In this document: piece by piece, positions 8,481 to 16,322 of the stretch
How the letters are laid out: each line of letters starts with the position of its first letter
Position numbering within the stretch: the first letter of the stretch is position 1
Source of the DNA: Nannocystis sp. RBIL2
GTDB lineage: Bacteria > Myxococcota_A > Polyangia > Nannocystales > Nannocystaceae
Assembly (NCBI RefSeq): GCF_026626745.1
Contig: NZ_JAPNJW010000002.1
Coordinates: forward strand, 1,510,151-1,574,150
Direction: 5' to 3'
Length of the DNA: 64,000 nt
Notes under the pieces: generated by a model
Told to the model about the DNA's origin: nothing
Databases searched by the model: none
Seen by the model: the letters and a program-made list of their open reading frames with translations, nothing else
Translations under genes and position numbers: made by a program

Positions 8481-9668
8481 ATGCCTCCACGCAACGACCA
8501 GCACCCCGACGTCGCCCCGCTCGCCCTCGATCCCCGACCGCGGCTCGGCCGCGACTACTCGCGGGTGACCGCGCGCGACCCGGCCGCGCCTCTCGATCGC
8601 ACGCGTCCCCTCGACTGGTCGCGCGTGCGGCGGATCCTCGTCGTCCGGCTCGACAACCTCGGCGACATCATCCTCACCGGCCCGGCCCTGCGCGCGCTCA
8701 AGGCCCATCTCCCGCACCTCCACCTCACCCTGCTCGCCAGCCCTGGCGGCGCCGCGGCGGCCGCCCTGCTGCCATGGGTCGACGACGTCGAGCCCTGCCG
8801 CGCCCTGTGGCAGGACCTGGGCCGCCTCGCCTTCGATCCCGCGCGCGAGCGCGAGCTCATCGCCACCCTCCGGCGCGGCGAGTACGACCTCGCCCTCATC
8901 CTCACCAGCTTCAGCCAGAGCCCGCACCCGGCCGCCCTCGCCTGCGCCCTGGCCGGCATCCCGATGCGGATCGGCGAGTCGCGCGAGCGCGGGCGGGCCC
9001 TCACGATCGCCCTCCCGCACGCCGACGACGGCCTCCACCAGTGCGAGCGCAACCTCCAACTCGTCGAGCGCCTCGGCGTGCCCGTCGTCGATCGCCGGCT
9101 CGAGATCTGCCTCCCGCGGCCCGCCTGGAGCGCCGCCCAGGCCCGCCTGGCCGCCCACCGCGTCGCCGGCGACTACCTCGTGTGGAACCCCTTCGCCAGC
9201 TGCCCCGCGCGCACCTACGACCCCCTGCGCCACGCCCTCGCCGCCCGCGCCCTGGCCGAGTACGCCGACCTGCGCCTGCTCGTCTGCGGCGCCGCCCGCG
9301 ACCGCGACCGCGCCCGCGAGCTCCTCCCGCTGCTCGGCTCGCGCGCCCTCGACCTGGTCGGAGAGACAGATCTACCCGAGTTCGCCGCCCTCCTCGCCGG
9401 CGCCCGCCTCGTCCTCACCAACAACACCGCCGCCCTCCACCTCGCCGACGCCCTCGCAGTGCCCCAGCTCGTCACCTACGCCGGCACCGACCGCGACAGC
9501 CAGTGGATGCCCCGCACCTCGCCCCACCGCCTGCTGCGCCGCCCCACCGCCTGCACCCCCTGCTATCGCTTCGCCTGCCCGACCAGCCACGAGTGCCTGG
9601 CCCTGGCCCCCGCCGAGGTCCTCGCCGCCGGCCTCTCGCTGCTCGCCGAGACCGCCGTGCGTGCGTGA
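8481..9668 (+). CDS. GT9 heptosyltransferase (paralog)
   Basis: VRLDNLGDIILTGPALRALK, C-terminal NNTAALHLADALAVP, PTACTPCYRFACPTSHEC motif. Confidence 0.85.
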   Translation: MPPRNDQHPDVAPLALDPRPRLGRDYSRVTARDPAAPLDRTRPLDWSRVRRILVVRLDNLGDIILTGPALRALKAHLPHLHLTLLASPGGAAAAALLPWVDDVEPCRALWQDLGRLAFDPARERELIATLRRGEYDLALILTSFSQSPHPAALACALAGIPMRIGESRERGRALTIALPHADDGLHQCERNLQLVERLGVPVVDRRLEICLPRPAWSAAQARLAAHRVAGDYLVWNPFASCPARTYDPLRHALAARALAEYADLRLLVCGAARDRDRARELLPLLGSRALDLVGETDLPEFAALLAGARLVLTNNTAALHLADALAVPQLVTYAGTDRDSQWMPRTSPHRLLRRPTACTPCYRFACPTSHECLALAPAEVLAAGLSLLAETAVRA

Positions 9669-9941
9669 AGGCCCGGTCACCGGGCTGCACAGGCCGAGCA
9701 CGAACAAGCGGCAGACCGCGACGCCAGACCTTGCGCTCCGTCATCCGGGCAGTACCCCGCCCGGCGGGGACCGCGACGCACCGAGGCTGGCCCGACAGGC
9801 AACGTCTCCAGCGGGGACGACGACCGGCACATCGAACGGGTGAGCGGCCGGCCGAAGATAGCGCCTGCCTTCGTGAGGCGGAACGCGGGACGTGCGCGCG
9901 CGATGCCGTCGTGGAGGAAGTTTGTTACTCTCCCTTCGGCC

Positions 9942-11462
9942 ATGACTCGGACGGCGGACAAGACCACCTCTCCGGTGTTTGTTTCGCTGTTGTGGCACAC
10001 GATGGCGGAGACGTCCTCGCAGGATCAGTTCGTGCTGGAGCGCGGCAAGGGCCGCAAGTGGGACGATTTCGGCTTCAAGACGCTCTACAGCCTCTATTGG
10101 CTCCCCGCTGGAGCCGAAGCCAAACAAGCCCGGTACATCGGGCCGATCAAGATCCTCCAGAGCGACGATCGCTCGACGGTGCTCCCCGATCGTTTCGCCG
10201 CGCTGAGCGAGTTTTACTGCAGCCTCGGCCAGAACCCCGAATACTACGAAAACCTCCAGGAGTTGGGTCCTGAGCTGGCTCAGGTTGTCCTGGTCGCGCT
10301 CCGCGACATCGCGTCCGATTCCGAAATAGAAGGAGATTTTGCCGAGCAAGAGGGTATCACCGTGTCGCTGCTTCGCTCGGTCTCAGCCCGCACGGCGATG
10401 AATTTGGCCCGTCAGAGGCTGCACGGCGTCGACGCGGATGTCGCTCCGGCCGAACTCACGTTTCGCTTTACCACGACGCTCTCGAAGGTCCTGCCGACTC
10501 CGTCCGCACCGTACCGCCTTGATGTGAGGCTCTCCGCCAGGGACGGGCGTCTTGGGCGCTTGATGGTGTTGGTCGGCAAGAACGCGACCGGCAAGAGCGG
10601 TTTGCTCAGCGTGCTCGGGCAGGCAGTCAGCGGCCTCGACAGCGAAGCAGGGAGCATCGACCCGCCCATCCGCGGCATCAGCCGTGTGATTGCGATCTCG
10701 TACAGCGCGTTCGACCCCTATCGATACTTCGGGAAGGCTCGACCGTCCACGGCTGTCGGATACTTTTATTGCGGGCTCCGCGATCATCATGGGGTCATCA
10801 ACCTCAAACACGCGTTCGACCGCAGTCACCGTCACCTTCGGCAGCTCGATCCAAGAGCCTGGCGTGACGCGATCCGGGCGTCGGGACTCGCCGACGAGGA
10901 GCCCTCGCTGGCGGCCGTGCTCGAGGAGCCAGACCCGAGCAAGTTGATCGAGCTCATGGAGACGCTCAGCTCCGGGCACAAGATTTTCCTGTTCGTGCTG
11001 GTCAACCTGCTCGCGACGATTCGGCCCCGGGCGCTGGTCCTCATCGACGAACCCGAGATCCATCTCCACCCGAACCTCTTGTCCAGCCTGATGCGCCTGC
11101 TCCACAAGATCCTGGACGAAAGCGACAGCTTCGCGGTCCTGGCCACCCATTCGCCCCAAGTGTTGCAAGAGGTGCCGGCGCGATACATCCGCATCGTCGA
11201 GCGAGTCGACGGGGCGCCCGCATTGAGGCTGTATCCAGGCGAGTCCTTCGGAGCGAACCTTGGCGAGATCATTCGCTTCGCCTTCGGCGTCGATGAGAAG
11301 AGCGCCAACTACTTCAAGATATTGAACTCGACCCTCGACGAGGAGACTCTCCGGCGCTGGTACGATCACACGCTCCACGCATCTTCGCTTAGCCTCGCGC
11401 CCTATACGGTCCTCGCCGATCGCCTCCACGTGAATGAGGAGGACGACGATGAGACGACTTAG
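9942..11462 (+). CDS. ABC/AAA_21-type ATPase, Septu PtuA-like, with about 210-aa N-terminal extension of unknown function
   Basis: Walker A VGKNATGKSGLLSVLG, ABC signature LSSGHKIF, Walker B ALVLIDEPEIHLHP, H-loop LATHSPQV; region GC clearly lower than flanks; start could also be 9840 or 9993. Confidence 0.8.
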   Translation: MTRTADKTTSPVFVSLLWHTMAETSSQDQFVLERGKGRKWDDFGFKTLYSLYWLPAGAEAKQARYIGPIKILQSDDRSTVLPDRFAALSEFYCSLGQNPEYYENLQELGPELAQVVLVALRDIASDSEIEGDFAEQEGITVSLLRSVSARTAMNLARQRLHGVDADVAPAELTFRFTTTLSKVLPTPSAPYRLDVRLSARDGRLGRLMVLVGKNATGKSGLLSVLGQAVSGLDSEAGSIDPPIRGISRVIAISYSAFDPYRYFGKARPSTAVGYFYCGLRDHHGVINLKHAFDRSHRHLRQLDPRAWRDAIRASGLADEEPSLAAVLEEPDPSKLIELMETLSSGHKIFLFVLVNLLATIRPRALVLIDEPEIHLHPNLLSSLMRLLHKILDESDSFAVLATHSPQVLQEVPARYIRIVERVDGAPALRLYPGESFGANLGEIIRFAFGVDEKSANYFKILNSTLDEETLRRWYDHTLHASSLSLAPYTVLADRLHVNEEDDDETT

Positions 11463-12348
11463 GCCGTATGGAGGGGATCCCTGGCAGTCCTTCCTCGATA
11501 TCTGCGGCGCATCGACGCACCAACGGCGTCGTCCGCGGCTCGCGGAGGTCCGCGCGGTCATCGAGGACCGCTATCAGGATTACCTGAATTTGAACGGAGA
11601 CTTCCTCAGAATCGCAGCATACTCCGACTTCTCCAAGGAGCAATCGGACGCGCTCAAGAAATGCTACGAGACCGAGGCGCCGGCGCTCAAACTCCTGAAA
11701 GAGGCGATCCGACAGCTCCAGGACCCGTCAGTCCGCGGCGTCTGTCAGAATTGCGGGCTGAACGAGCCGAACACGTTCGACCACTACATTCCCAAGGACG
11801 AATTCCCGGAGTTTGCGATTCACCCGCATAACATCGTCCCGTGCTGCCAGCAGTGCAACGACCTCCGGCGCCGCAAGCCGTGGCGCGACGAACATGGATG
11901 TCGGACGTTCCACTTCTATTTCGACGATGTCGAAGTGAGTGAAAGACACCTGGTTGCGAGGATCATCCGCGACGGCAACGACGAGCCGCGGATGCTCTTC
12001 GAGTGTTCGTCCTCCCCTGAGGCCCCCGGTTTCGGCGGAAGGTACTCTCGCCACGCGGAGACGCTGCAACTCCCGCGGCGGCTGGAAGAGCGCGCGCCGA
12101 CAGAGCTGGATCGAATCTGCAATGAGTTGGCGGCGACGGCCGAACTGCTGCCCGGAGCTCCAGAGGCTTCGGAAAGAATAGACCGGTTGCGGGACCGGTC
12201 AAGGAACGTCGCTACACGCATGAAGAAGGTCCGCGGCCCGAACCACTGGGAGGTTGCGGCCTGGCATGCGGTCGCGGCGGCTCCGTGGTTCATCGAGCGC
12301 TGCCTCGCGCGCCAGAATAGGGAGGCGAGCTGTGATGACCAGGTCTGA
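11449..12348 (+). CDS. HNH endonuclease-domain protein (PtuB-like)
   Basis: CQNCGLNEPNTFDHYIPKDEFPEFAIHPHNIVPCCQQCN = CxxC..DH..N..CxxCN HNH motif; 14-nt overlap with ATPase stop; alternative ATG 11434. Confidence 0.75.
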   Translation: MRRLRPYGGDPWQSFLDICGASTHQRRRPRLAEVRAVIEDRYQDYLNLNGDFLRIAAYSDFSKEQSDALKKCYETEAPALKLLKEAIRQLQDPSVRGVCQNCGLNEPNTFDHYIPKDEFPEFAIHPHNIVPCCQQCNDLRRRKPWRDEHGCRTFHFYFDDVEVSERHLVARIIRDGNDEPRMLFECSSSPEAPGFGGRYSRHAETLQLPRRLEERAPTELDRICNELAATAELLPGAPEASERIDRLRDRSRNVATRMKKVRGPNHWEVAAWHAVAAAPWFIERCLARQNREASCDDQV

Positions 12349-12808
12349 CTGGCGCCATGACGCGAGGGCGAGCCTCGAGTCGCTGCGCGAGGCGCTCGGC
12401 GAACTCCAGGACAGGTGGGGGTTCGCTTGCGAAGACGATCCGATCGACGACGACGACGACGACGACGACGCTTACGAGTATGATCAGCTCTCCTCAGACA
12501 TCGAGACGGCGCTCGATACGCTCGTAGACGAACTGACCCAGCACCAGGCGACGCCGGACGTGGAAGAGCTCACGGTCGACGAGTTGCTCGCCAGGTATGT
12601 TACGGACGGTCTGGTGAGCCCAGAGCAGGTCAAGGTCGCGGCGGCGCTCGTGGACGCTCTCGGCTCCCGGGGGTCCCGGGGCGCTCGGACCAGCGAGCTA
12701 ATCATGGGGCCGAGCTACGAGCAGCTCCTGAGCGTGGTAGACGCGCTCGAGCGGCTCGTCGACCACACCGCCGACGGGGAGGAAGAACCGGCCAATGCCA
12801 TGGACTGA
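12335..12808 (+). CDS. Small strongly acidic hypothetical protein (poly-Asp run; possible DNA-mimic/immunity factor)
   Basis: 157 aa, DDPIDDDDDDDDAYEYDQ, net very negative; 14-nt overlap with HNH gene stop and with next gene start. Confidence 0.55.
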   Translation: MTRSDWRHDARASLESLREALGELQDRWGFACEDDPIDDDDDDDDAYEYDQLSSDIETALDTLVDELTQHQATPDVEELTVDELLARYVTDGLVSPEQVKVAAALVDALGSRGSRGARTSELIMGPSYEQLLSVVDALERLVDHTADGEEEPANAMD

Positions 12809-13421
12809 CGAGGAAGACCTGGCTCGTTGCCTCGAGCGCGCCGGCGTCGCGCTCGCGGGTCTGCGCGAGCGCTGCTCGGAGGTCGTCGTGTTCGGTTCTC
12901 GCGCGGCGGGCATCGGCGATGCGAGGTCCGACTGGGACGTGCTGTGCGTCGGCGACGGGGCGACGCGGCGGACGCGAGAGCTGGACCTCGTCTGGATCTC
13001 CGCATCATTTACACGTGGCGACGCGTGGACGACGGGCGAGCTCGCGTCGCACGTCGTCACTTACGGGCGATGGATCGTCGGGAACCCGGGTCCATGGGTA
13101 TCCCACGTGGCCATCACTTCGCAGACCGTCAGACGCAAGGTTCGCTGGATCCAGACGCACGTCGACACGTGGCGACGATTCTGGCCGCGCTGCTCGCCCC
13201 AACTGCGAACGCGCTACGCGGCAACGCTGAGGTACAACTTTCTCCGCCTTGATTTTTTGCTGCGCAAACAGGCGGTGCCACCGCGGCAGAGCCTGGATAG
13301 GTGGTTCGCGGAGCTCTCCGATAGGGCAGAGTGGTCCGAAGCGATGGCGGCAGTCGCCAAGGTCAGGGACGACTTCGTCTCCCGCGAATTGCTGCCGCGT
13401 GTGTGCCGGTCGTCTGGCTGA
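12795..13421 (+). CDS. Minimal nucleotidyltransferase (MNT)-domain protein with C-terminal extension carrying a possible HEPN-like Rx4H motif
   Basis: VVVFGSRAAGIGDARSDWDVLCVG = GS-x9-DxD NTase fold motif; C-terminal RWIQTH. Confidence 0.7.
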   Translation: MPWTDEEDLARCLERAGVALAGLRERCSEVVVFGSRAAGIGDARSDWDVLCVGDGATRRTRELDLVWISASFTRGDAWTTGELASHVVTYGRWIVGNPGPWVSHVAITSQTVRRKVRWIQTHVDTWRRFWPRCSPQLRTRYAATLRYNFLRLDFLLRKQAVPPRQSLDRWFAELSDRAEWSEAMAAVAKVRDDFVSRELLPRVCRSSG

Positions 13422-13813
13422 CCGCCTGCCGGCGCACCCGCCTGCCCCCTGGTGCAGGTTACCGCGCGCCACAGATGTGCCCGCCTGTCGCTCGAGCCTG
13501 CTCGTCACCAGAAGGACGGCGTGCAGTAGGACAGCCCACATGCGAGACATCAAGAAATCATAAGCCTCCGCCGCTGCGCGCGAAGCAGCGAAGCTCCGGC
13601 TGAGACCGTCCGCCCCGCCTCGCAGCCTGAGGCGCACGAAACGATTCGATCGCCGCGCACCGTGCGCGACTGCCTGCGACCCTGCAGCGGGCGCAAACGG
13701 GATCCTCAAAAAAGCGGCCCGTACGGCCCGCTACGCCGCATCCCCGACGATTAGTGAGAACGGCCGTGCAGGCAACTGCCAACAAAATCTTCCCCGAGGA
13801 GGGAACACTCGCC

Positions 13814-13999
13814 ATGCATCTCGAACGAGTTGAGACCCGATCGGAACAGCACCACGGCACCGCCGTGGAGCCGTGGAGCAACCTCGACGAGGACGACTTT
13901 CTCCTCGCCGCCGAGGCCAGCCTCGAAGCGCTGCGCGAAGGCGAGGACGAGGAGGAGCTGTCCCCGGACGACATCGAGGAAGTGCCCGAAGATCAGTAG
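13814..13999 (+). CDS. Small acidic hypothetical protein
   Basis: 61 aa ORF with GAGGAGG 9 nt upstream of ATG; no recognisable domain. Confidence 0.3.
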   Translation: MHLERVETRSEQHHGTAVEPWSNLDEDDFLLAAEASLEALREGEDEEELSPDDIEEVPEDQ

Positions 14000-14349
14000 C
14001 CCGGCCTGATCACGCGGTCCGTGCCGATACCACGAATCACCCGAGCGTCGCGGGATTCCTTACATCATCCAGCCCTTGCTCGCTACCGGGCACCGCTCCC
14101 ACCGCGGATCCCAGTCCCAATCGTGCCCCTCGCCCGGAAGAGTAATTGCTGCCCGGGCCGAAGCCCGCGCGAACGCCCTCGAGGCGGCGCCTCGGCGCCT
14201 GCCTGACGCAGCTCGTCGCGGGAGGCCCGGCGCCTCGGCGCCTGCCTGACGCAGCTCGCCACGGGACGCCCGACTCTCGCCCCGAGCTCCCACCCGCGGC
14301 GGATGCGACCCCGCCGTCCCGCCCCGTCCTGCGGCATCATGGCCCTGCC

Positions 14350-15162
14350 ATGCGGTTCGGTCCCGGACACTTCCTCGGCGTCTTCGAGCGGCGGCGCACG
14401 GCTCACGGCTTGTCGCTCGCCGATCTGCGGCCGACCGTGCCCGAGCACGAGGTTCACCGGCACACCCACGAGGACGCCCACTTCCTGCTCTTGCTCGCCG
14501 GTCGCTATCTCAGCAGCGCGCGCGGCATGCCGGACGTATGCGATCACCCCGCGCTCGTCCTCAACCCGCCGGGCACCACCCACGTCGATCGCTTCCGCGG
14601 CCTCGACGGCCGCTTCTTCACCCTGTCCGTCCCGACCGCGGCCTAGCACACGGCCACCGCGACCTGCCCGCTCCCCGACCACCCCGTGCGGCTGGGCACG
14701 GCAGCCTTGCTCGCGGCCTATCGCCTGTGCCACGAATTGCCGCGCTGGGACGCTGCCTCCGCGCTCGTCGTCGAGTCCGAATACCACCTGCTCCTCGCCG
14801 AGGCCGCCCTCGACGCCCGCCAACGGCGCTCCTCCGGACCGCCCTGGCTGGCGCGCGCCCGCGAACAGCTGCAGGACACCGGCGCAGTCACCCCGCGCCT
14901 GTCCGAGCTCGCCGCTGCTGCCGACGTCCACCCCGTCCACTTCTCGCGCGCCTTCCGGGCCCGCTACGGCCGCTCTCCCGGCGAGTACCTGCGTCACTGT
15001 CGCCTCGAGCGCGCCAGCGCCTTGCTGCGGGACCTCCGCACGCCCCTCGCCGACATCGCGGCCCAGTGCGGCTACGTCGACCAGAGCCACTTCAGCCGCG
15101 CCTTTCACCGCGCCTACCGCCTCACCCCTGCCGCCTTCCGCCGGCTCGTGCGGCCGGCCTGA
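14350..15162 (+). pseudogene. AraC-family transcriptional regulator interrupted by in-frame TAG at 14644-14646
   Basis: N-terminal cupin-like sensor (ORF 14146-14646) and C-terminal AraC HTH ([42 protein letters not shown]) are in the same frame, separated only by one TAG. Confidence 0.55.
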
Positions 15163-15230
15163 CACGTTCACGGCGTACAAGACCGGGCCCCGCCGCGCGG
15201 CTAGCCTCGCGCCTCTCCCGACCCGGCCCG

Positions 15231-16322
15231 ATGCCCGCCTTCAAGCTGTTCGCCGCCTGCCCCCTCGCCCTGCTGCTCCTCCTCGACGCCGCCGCAGCCT
15301 CCTGCGCCCCCGACTCTCCGGCCCCGCTCGCCTCGCCCCCGCCGCCCCGCCTCGAGGACGTCACGAGCGCCGTCGAGGCCGGCGAGTTCGGCCAGATCAC
15401 CAGCATCCTCGTCGCGCGCGACGGCCAGCTGCTCTACGAACATTACTTCGACGACGGCGGACGCGAGGCCCCGCGCAACACCCGGTCCGCCACCAAGACC
15501 CTCGCCGGCATTTTGGTCGGCCAGGCCATCGCTGACGGCAAGCTGCCCGGCCCGCAGGCCCCGATCCTCGACTACCTCGCGCCATACGGCCCGCCCGAGC
15601 ACCCCGATCCGCGCAAGGCGCAGATCACCGTCGAGGACCTGCTGACCATGTCGTCGCTGCTCGAATGCCACGACGAGAACCAATTCTCGCGCGGCCACGA
15701 GGAGCGCATGTACCTCGTCGAGGATTGGGTGAAGTTCTACCTCGACCTGCCGATCCAGGGCTTCCCGGCCTGGATGCCCAAGCCGGCCGATTCGCCGCAC
15801 GGCCGCAGCTTCCGCTATTGCACCGCCGGCGTGACCGCGCTCGGCGCGGTGCTGCAGGCCGCGACCGGCGAGCGCCTCGACGTCTACGCCCAGCGCAGGT
15901 TGCTTACCCCGCTCGGCATCGCCGATCCCAAATGGCAATACTCGCCGCTGGGTCTGCCGCAGGCCGGCGGCGGGCTCGGCCTGCGCAGCCGCGACCTGCT
16001 GGCGCTCGGCCAGCTCTACCTCGACGGCGGCCGCCACGCCGGCCAGCAGCTCGTGCCCGCCGAGTGGGTCGCGCGCTCCGTGCAGCCGCACGCCCGCGTC
16101 GACGACGGCGTCGAGTACGGCTATCTGTGGTGGCTGATGCAGTTCCCGGTCGGCGAGCGGATCTGGGACTCGTGGGCCATGAACGGCAGCGGCGGCAACA
16201 CAGTGCAGGTGTTCCCGGCCGAGAGAGTCGCCGTCGTCATCACCACCACCAACTTCGACCGCCCGCAGCCGCATCGCCTCACCGCCAAGCTGCTGACGGA
16301 CAGGCTCCTCCCGGCCCTGTGA
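15231..16322 (+). CDS. Serine hydrolase, beta-lactamase/esterase family (class C-like), secreted, possible lipoprotein
   Basis: Signal peptide with AAASC; SxxK motif RSATKTL; YCTAGVT; 363 aa. Confidence 0.85.

Follow-up and report, generated by a model that had tools for sequence, protein, structure and literature searches.

MntA, the nucleotidyltransferase of the type VII MntA-HepT systems, nucleotidylates a tyrosine of its helical partner protein. In Hailong, HalB constitutively makes a tyrosine-primed, template-independent poly-dA that keeps the HalA channel closed, and the system is triggered when a phage exonuclease degrades this poly-dA (reviewed in PMC13434031 and PMC13276650). In retron Ec78/Eco7, according to PMC12819146 and PMC12673091, the multicopy single-stranded DNA (msDNA) sequesters PtuAB. 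Here we compare these systems with a four-gene cassette in a 64,000-nucleotide (nt) stretch of contig NZ_JAPNJW010000002.1 of Nannocystis sp. RBIL2, referred to below as the window and used for all coordinates. We put at roughly one in two the probability that this locus is a horizontally acquired composite anti-phage operon, in which a Septu-like effector (genes 1 and 2) is under the control of a portable, Hailong-related pair (genes 3 and 4).

The cassette consists of four + strand open reading frames (ORFs), flanked by the last heptosyltransferase gene (8481-9668) on one side and by an AraC-like gene on the other. The features of the locus are as follows.

9870-13421, + strand: transferable cassette, comprising a leader and four translationally coupled genes, delimited by blastn and sliding identity against relatives
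9870-9941, + strand: conserved upstream leader, presumably promoter and 5' untranslated region, 83-92% identical to loci L138 and L005
9942-11462, + strand: gene 1, a PtuA-like ABC/SMC-type ATPase (PDC-M01A), from PADLOC, Pfam, and PDB profile matches
11449-12348, + strand: gene 2, an HNH nuclease (PDC-M01B) and presumed effector nuclease, from PADLOC and invariant HNH residues
12335-12808, + strand: gene 3, a small, very acidic partner protein, predicted to be all-helical, with a poly-Asp tract at residues 38-46
12795-13421, + strand: gene 4, a two-domain nucleotidyltransferase of a HalB-related family
9750-14250, no strand: low-GC zone, comprising the cassette and about 0.8 kb of downstream spacer, from windowed GC and GC at third codon positions (GC3)

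The ORF coordinates bear out the head-to-tail order initially assigned to the four genes, with an overlap from ATG to stop of exactly 14 nt at all three junctions. GGAGG-like Shine-Dalgarno sequences lie 6-9 nt 5' of the starts of genes 2, 3, and 4 (at 11438, 12321, and 12778). Gene 1 has start candidates at GTG 9840, ATG 9942, and ATG 10002, with the stop ending at 11462, and its product is 100% identical to an "AAA family ATPase" of Nannocystis sp. ILAH1; because the NCBI product of that identical protein has 506 amino acids (aa), ATG 9942 is the fitting start. Among 84 PDC-M01-type loci, the gene 1/gene 2 overlap was 14 nt in 11, all close relatives among them, and between 1 and 14 nt in most. 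At the gene 2/3 and gene 3/4 junctions, respectively, the overlaps were 11 and 14 nt in Nannocystis radixulma, 17 and 14 nt in L005, 4 and 20 nt in L001, 4 and 26 nt in Archangium, and 4 and 4 nt in a metagenome-assembled genome (MAG) of the Kofleriaceae. Tight coupling is conserved across relatives, and only the overlap length of the first junction is inherited. The triple 14-nt overlap was also considered as a designed feature and was rejected in favor of chance, since the junctions vary among relatives and among the 84 PDC-M01 loci.

Septu combines an ABC/SMC-type ATPase having a DEPExHLHP Walker B region with an overlapping HNH nuclease gene that follows it, and genes 1 and 2 share this anatomy. 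They are adjacent and co-oriented, as in a Septu operon, and have a 14-nt overlap with a Shine-Dalgarno sequence. All the motifs that the initial annotation listed for the two proteins are present in the sequence; those of gene 1 are GKNATGKS (Walker A), LSSGHK (signature), LVLIDEPEIHLHP (Walker B), and LATHSP (H-loop). The PADLOC models PDC-M01A and PDC-M01B matched gene 1 at 1.5e-104 (model positions 26-474 of 482) and gene 2 at 1.5e-46 (positions 1-278 of 281), and the corresponding pair of Archangium minus matched them at 1.9e-148 and 9.4e-67. The PtuA model PDLC00282 also matched gene 1 over its full length (3e-61, positions 24-486 of 520), and Pfam returned AAA_21 (1.2e-17) and AAA_15 (2.9e-11). 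When a profile made from 40 gene 1 homologs was compared with the PDB, the top 11 sequences were all PtuA (6e-14 to 3e-10), followed by AriA, so that PtuA is the closest solved relative. The matched PtuA chains derive from Septu, retron Ec78/Eco7, and retron Ec83, and the matches cover only the C-terminal ATPase part of the query (about residues 296-435).

The HNH residues of gene 2 (C99, C102, D111, H112, N128, C133, C136, and N137) are invariant across 36 homologs, and the Pfam HNH match was borderline (3.9e-4, 21.0 bits versus a cut-off of 21.4). A profile of the 36 homologs reached PtuB chains at 7.5e-4 to 0.07 over only about 45 residues of the HNH core and, although PtuB was among the top HNH matches, scored these chains no better than IscB-type HNH domains. 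Gene 2 had no NCBIfam match at E≤0.1 and hence none to the PtuB family TIGR02646. Gene 1, whose N-terminus carries an additional domain of about 180 aa, fell far under the cut-off of the NCBIfam PtuA equivalog for retron Ec78-type PtuA, NF041760 (42.4 bits versus 500), with only residues 398-455 aligning. The pair had been called a hallmark of Septu; the likeness stands on the PDC-M01A/B matches and the PtuA model, but TIGR02646 and NF041760 place the pair outside the canonical families. In a survey of the Bacillus cereus group, 41 PDC-M01 calls were removed as duplicating Septu calls on the same proteins (PMC11811056). The PADLOC matches, and the PtuA chains at the head of the PDB list, identify genes 1 and 2 as a Septu-like PDC-M01 pair, not canonical Septu, and certainly not as RecF/RecN/SbcC-type housekeeping proteins. 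Within PDC-M01A proteins, we observed that the N-terminal domain of about 180 aa preceding Walker A (gene 1 residues 1-180, 10002-10540) is conserved, with W20, D22, T27, K50, G76, Y82, D102, S122, and R125 invariant.

Gene 4 carries the catalytic motif G34-S35-x10-D46-x-D48; the motif had been recognized from the start, with a trivial slip in its spacing (x9 for x10). An AlphaFold model built with a 47-sequence alignment was confident (predicted local distance difference test, pLDDT, of 94.9) and has an N-terminal Pol-beta-type transferase domain followed by a C-terminal helical bundle. Foldseek searches with this model returned HalB (4.7e-7, TM-score 0.59) and ANT(4') (9.4e-7). The best PDB sequence match of the family profile was likewise HalB (1.6e-6), a remote relationship at 16-17% identity, and it spans the catalytic GS..DxD, a third acidic residue, and a common A-x-H-x-A motif. 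Residues F33, G34, S35, S45, D46, D48, W78, E82, A84, H86, and K115 are invariant in the gene 4 family and D64, R146, R151, and P163 nearly so; Y90 is common but not invariant. Other matches were weak, namely NTP_transf_2 (4.4e-4), the NCBIfam MntA model NF047752 (17.1 bits versus a cut-off of 60), and, for gene 4 and its relatives in PADLOC, PDC-S09 and PDC-M05A only; no CBASS or Pycsar synthase model in PADLOC matched gene 4. Profile and predicted fold together place gene 4 closer to Hailong HalB than to the MntA antitoxins, and we take the HalB relationship as a lead to function, not proof. Of the MNT/HEPN-like nucleotidyltransferase first proposed, the transferase motif is upheld, but HalB is nearer than MntA, and RWIQTH (Rx4H), considered as a HEPN motif, was rejected since it is conserved neither in 7 nor in 47 family members.

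Hailong, composed of the HalA membrane channel and the HalB nucleotidyltransferase, was compared by means of the reviews cited above and PDB entries 9dbh, 9dbi, and 9dbj. It differs from the cassette in that gene 4 and HalB are only about 16% identical and in that the window has no HalA channel, the upstream genes encoding instead an ATPase and an HNH nuclease. As a separate observation, tblastn of a HalB fragment against plasmids revealed HalB-like transferases of 220 aa, 45-48% identical, on small plasmids, namely a Yersinia ruckeri plasmid (L136, 2998-3660) and 5.5-kb Klebsiella pneumoniae plasmids (L137, 1723-2385). These genes had no obvious membrane-protein neighbor; an ORF of 87 aa lies upstream in Yersinia and one of 196 aa downstream in Klebsiella, and they may represent yet another HalB-type context.

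The 157-aa product of gene 3 has a pI of 4.05 and 42 Asp/Glu versus 11 Lys/Arg residues, for a net charge of about -31. It matched no Pfam, PADLOC, or NCBIfam family, and its profile matched no PDB entry. A single-sequence AlphaFold2 model, of low confidence (pLDDT 63), was all-alpha, and its best Foldseek probabilities (0.9-0.98) were with HepT-type HEPN toxins at TM-scores of 0.57-0.71, the E value of about 0.5 being not significant. A conserved Rx4-6H motif and a Pfam HEPN match were both lacking. Across loci, proteins encoded at the gene 3 position are conserved in position, size, charge, and helical layout, and an alignment of 29 partners has mostly a Tyr in an acidic loop (…Y-G-x-E-P-S-D-E-D…). 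Poly-Asp tracts occur in three partners associated with an ATPase-HNH pair, N-proximal in the window and C-terminal in Archangium L019 and in L108, and the gene 3 protein of L001 does not have the tract.

The distribution of the four genes indicates that they belong to two separable modules. A first search with gene 4 retrieved five relatives among 5.8 billion proteins; all five contigs had gene 3 directly upstream, and genes 2 and 1 were also present wherever the contig was long enough. A profile search enlarged the family to 94 proteins, an exhaustive search in clusters at 50% identity gave 379 at E≤1e-30 and 489 at E≤1e-10, and a scan of viral contigs found no gene 4 relatives. We then scanned with the gene 1 alignment, taking one genome per species, and obtained 80 PDC-M01 loci spread over many phyla. 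Only two of these had partners that the gene 3 and gene 4 profiles could detect, Archangium violaceum (L019) and the Kofleriaceae MAG (L085), both Myxococcota; the remaining 78 lacked both genes and had no other recurrent gene after the HNH gene. The two further coupled genes of the cassette thus set it apart from Septu and from PDC-M01 as usually found. The four genes also occur in A. minus (L134) and N. radixulma (L138), and in all they stand together in at least eight other loci, from N. radixulma, two Archangium species, the Kofleriaceae MAG, and metagenomic contigs. The proteins of genes 1 to 4 in L001 share 61, 53, 50, and 61% identity with their window counterparts, a divergence in step. 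PDC-M01 usually consists of two genes; loci with all four are in the minority and have been found so far in Myxococcota and soil metagenomes.

A metagenome scan, made with a 15-sequence subset and the pattern WLG[SG]ELAGH, which favors the membrane-associated clade, gave 46 loci with gene 4 relatives, one of which (L108) had the ATPase-HNH pair. Among loci with enough upstream sequence, the gene preceding the gene 3-gene 4 pair encoded a membrane protein in 25, a TIR protein in 3, and the ATPase-HNH pair in 9, the last mostly Myxococcota; these proportions carry the bias of the scan and are not population estimates. In 37 of about 40 such loci, the effector gene directly precedes the pair, with either an overlap or a spacing of a few tens of nt. 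The membrane effector is a multi-pass protein of about 215 aa with the N-terminal motif EYxILQDKIDKIGxFRFTIKGW and hydrophobic helices; it belongs to no Pfam family and has weak matches to PADLOC PDC-M50A. The TIR effector, of about 480 aa, has an N-terminal CAP12/Pycsar TIR domain (PF10137, 5e-29; PADLOC CBASS TIR effector, 4.5e-41; PycTIR, 1.6e-30). Effector and gene 4 are mostly separated by 310-500 nt (two loci with membrane effectors have about 800 nt), and in nearly every locus an acidic ORF of 90-180 aa with a pI of 4.0-5.7 occupies this interval. In a rough neighbor-joining tree, the gene 4 proteins that accompany ATPase-HNH pairs did not form a single clade, which suggests either more than one exchange of effectors or an ancestral state.

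The initial annotation treated genes 3 and 4 as additions to a Septu variant. They do recur with ATPase-HNH pairs, as the co-occurrence at eight or more other loci confirms, but elsewhere they constitute an independent and more widespread two-gene module. Two neighborhoods of this module may be recorded here. In L117 (2112-6576), the triplet of membrane protein, acidic partner, and transferase lies directly 3' of an HmaC-type ATPase (PADLOC, 7.3e-126), which suggests that it is embedded in an Hma defense locus. In a Terriglobales contig (L132/L133, 3088-7534), the triplet is flanked on one side by a HigB-like toxin/HTH pair and on the other by a metallo-beta-lactamase-fold gene with a weak Pfam match to Anti-Pycsar Apyc1. 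The L117 and L132 neighborhoods are defense-island settings.

The cassette also differs from its surroundings in composition. In 500-nt windows, GC fell from 73-77% in the flanks to 60-69% over the stretch from about 9750 to 14250, so the GC drop described at the outset (from about 70% to 58-60%) is real, its absolute values having been placed a little low. GC across the region is not uniform: the lowest-GC 3.6-kb window of the whole 64 kb starts at 9801 (63.7% versus a mean of 71.8%, standard deviation 2.0) and coincides with the cassette. GC3 is 76-84% in the four genes versus 89-95% in the neighboring heptosyltransferase and AraC genes. By blastn, N. radixulma (85% identity) and L005 align only at 9811-13417 and 9855-13409 of the window, respectively; sliding identity climbs at about 9870 and drops off just beyond the gene 4 stop at 13421, and the genes outside the shared block are unrelated between the window and N. 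radixulma. The presence of the cassette in different flanks in two Nannocystis species fits horizontal acquisition, and together with the GC minimum it supports what the initial annotation had proposed; these comparisons indicate that the cassette is horizontally acquired and mobile.

Examination of the window for integration signals gave no tRNA gene, no integrase, and no convincing direct or inverted repeats flanking the cassette. Decay is apparent in a MAG copy (L002, contig of GCA_024708825.1, 10-1484), where frameshifts break genes 3 and 4, and in L005 (3191-3808), where an in-frame stop shortens the gene 4 product to 158 aa. The leader (9870-9941) had no visible sigma-70 consensus, and its identity to L138 and L005 fell within that seen for the coding sequence. 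We considered whether the leader might contain an RNA that is structured or unusually conserved and rejected this, given the level of conservation and the lack of an Rfam match in 9000-14600 at E≤1. Anatomy, family assignments, cassette mobility, and effector exchange are the elements of our reading that the comparisons support.

Several features of the spacer and the region beyond it were recorded separately. A 61-aa, very acidic ORF (13814-13999, + strand; MHLERVETRSEQHH…EEVPEDQ) follows gene 4; it matched no Pfam or PADLOC family, is present in L004 (about 80% at the DNA level) and absent from the N. radixulma cassette, and contains an ASLExLRE stretch that recurs at the N-terminus of gene 3 (direct repeat D5, 73%). 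A 43-nt unit occurs in two tandem copies (93% identical) at 14185-14270, just 5' of the AraC-like gene. The AraC-like regulator (14338-15165, + strand) has a single in-frame stop at 14644-14646, between its N-terminal sensor half and its C-terminal helix-turn-helix (HTH) half (14686-15162), and is either a pseudogene or the product of a sequencing error. The 92%-identical relative contig L004 lacks about 14470-15860 of the window entirely.

In the mechanism that we propose, genes 1 and 2 (module A) would form a toxic effector and genes 3 and 4 (module B) its portable control pair. In the uninfected cell, the gene 4 transferase would continuously add nucleotides to a protein hydroxyl group, which would belong either to the transferase (the HalB case) or to a loop of its acidic partner (a Tyr, or a Ser in the Nannocystis clade), and the resulting adduct, a nucleotide or an oligonucleotide, would act with that partner to hold the ATPase-HNH complex off. 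A phage activity that destroys or sequesters this ligand or halts its renewal, such as an exonuclease, would then release the nuclease, and the freed nuclease would cut tRNA or DNA and abort the infection. Such a guard adduct is proposed because the precedents of HalB, MntA, and retron Ec78/Eco7 agree; it is from these analogies that we infer the inhibitory direction of the guard, the chemistry of its product, and the target of the nuclease. The substrate of gene 4 is more likely to be the transferase itself, the acidic partner, or a small molecule than the effector, because the acidic protein is the sole partner kept across three effector classes.

The type I-A retrons (Ec78/Eco7 and Ec83) offer a parallel in logic. 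In both cases a PtuAB-type effector is controlled by an added nucleic-acid-synthesizing module, predicted as such for the cassette, and in both the control module is found with unrelated effectors at other loci. Unlike the retrons, the cassette has no reverse transcriptase among its four genes and, judging from the Rfam search of 9000-14600, no noncoding RNA, and its polymerase would be a Pol-beta-type nucleotidyltransferase with a small protein partner. More tentatively, and as a proposal that we think more apt to fail than to hold, genes 3 and 4 may represent an undescribed portable guard family, in which a transferase related to HalB extends the acidic partner with a nucleotide or oligonucleotide chain and so restrains membrane, TIR, and Septu-like killers until a phage enzyme removes the adduct.

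A number of observations weigh against the composite operon as we read it. Effectors of the TIR and membrane types are equally characteristic of systems activated by a nucleotide signal, and the sign of the regulation may be activating rather than inhibitory. PDC-M01 is an unpublished PADLOC candidate, and the literature searched contained no experimental validation of it. Hailong is a two-gene system, whereas here an acidic partner gene intervenes between effector and transferase, and the membrane proteins of the 25 related loci have no detectable similarity to solved chains: their profile matched none at E<0.4, HalA included, and a sequence-profile link of this family to HalA was accordingly rejected. 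The homology of gene 3 across effector classes is marginal (hhalign probability 37%, E 3.5e-4), and jackhmmer searches with gene 3 remained confined to the Nannocystis clade. In that clade, this locus included, a Ser within G-S-R-G-S-R-G replaces the candidate acceptor Tyr. The bias of the metagenome scan noted above also counts here.

The main rival is a model in which the control pair activates the effector, following the logic of CBASS, Pycsar, or Thoeris: gene 4, with gene 3 as sensor or regulator, would stay silent until infection, when it would make a signal (a nucleotide or oligonucleotide) to turn on the upstream effector. The CAP12/Pycsar TIR proteins and small membrane proteins found before the pair are classic second-messenger effectors, and CBASS and Pycsar likewise combine a conserved nucleotidyltransferase with TIR (PF10137) and membrane effectors that can be exchanged. 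Gene 4, however, resembles HalB, ANT, and MNT proteins rather than CD-NTases or cyclases, and the acidic partner is extra to the CBASS and Pycsar layouts. Moreover, Pfam found no SAVED, CARF, STING, or cyclic nucleotide monophosphate-binding domain in the ATPase, HNH, membrane, or TIR proteins, and the control documented for PtuAB-type effectors is inhibitory, being exerted by retron msDNA. We consider activation unlikely, though it is the alternative that fares best.

Two lesser rivals concern the role of gene 3. In one, the gene 3 product would be an immunity protein that mimics DNA and directly obstructs the surface with which the effector binds nucleic acid, with gene 4 only modifying the gene 3 product, for instance by AMPylation, and no oligonucleotide being made. 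The extreme acidity of gene 3 and the recurrence of poly-Asp tracts at differing positions in ATPase-HNH-associated partners are in keeping with this, as is the AMPylation of a partner Tyr by MntA-type transferases (AMPylated HEPN toxin structures 7ae6 and 7ae9). A similar partner nevertheless accompanies membrane and TIR effectors, whose substrate is not nucleic acid, and the poly-Asp tract is not conserved even in L001, which makes a DNA mimic improbable in our estimation.

In the other, the two pairs would be independent neighbors that travel together in a defense islet, genes 1 and 2 as a stand-alone Septu-like system and genes 3 and 4 as a type VII-like HEPN-fold/MNT toxin-antitoxin. PDC-M01 does ordinarily work as two genes, and the pair shares with MntA-HepT a minimal GS..DxD transferase motif, with the weak NTP_transf_2 and MntA matches given above, beside a partner of about 130-150 aa that is helical; the gene 3 model, of low confidence, is weakly HEPN-fold-like, with its best Foldseek probabilities among HepT-type toxins. 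But gene 3 lacks both the Rx4-6H RNase motif and any HEPN sequence signal, and the fold match carries the nonsignificant E value and low pLDDT already stated; gene 4 carries an additional helical domain at its C-terminus, and its MntA score of 17 bits falls short of the cut-off of 60; and the gene order and the obligatory upstream effector are not those of MntA-HepT. The four genes also diverge in step in L001 and relocate together between genomic sites. A self-contained MNT/HEPN pair that merely sits next to Septu is unlikely, given that an effector gene precedes the pair almost everywhere, and this tells equally against the Septu plus toxin-antitoxin composite first suggested; we rank independent neighbors last among the alternatives that deserve weight.

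That the locus is no defense system, with a housekeeping repair ATPase and nuclease beside unrelated small genes, is scarcely credible: beyond a generic ABC ATPase fold nothing speaks for it, UvrA and ABC-F proteins lie far down the gene 1 match list, the best matches are to defense-specific families with a patchy taxonomic distribution, the cassette is low in GC and mobile with one copy decayed, and relatives stand in defense contexts (HmaC in L117, HigB in L132).

The preferred reading therefore remains a Septu-like effector held under a Hailong-related control pair. Septu-like pairs and Hailong are already known. Neither the literature searched nor PADLOC 2.0 contained the layout of effector, acidic partner, and HalB-related transferase, the exchange of effectors before it, or its fusion with a PtuAB-like pair; the primary Hailong paper lay outside that search, so a prior mention is possible. 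Annotation tools would call the locus a two-gene PDC-M01 or Septu system and overlook half of it, and PADLOC 2.0 does not model the gene 4 family, whose approximately 400 sequence clusters are directly testable. The orphan acidic protein acquires a predicted role as primer or adaptor, and the locus provides a compact four-gene system for studying how PtuAB-like complexes are silenced. If the composite reading is correct, the "synthesized decoy" principle of Hailong would not be bound to one membrane channel and would instead form a modular control device on at least three effector types, including a Septu-type nuclease that retrons have also captured. If the guard family is true, it would amount to retron-like logic without a reverse transcriptase and to a second, independent route by which PtuAB-type effectors come under the control of non-genomic nucleic acid.

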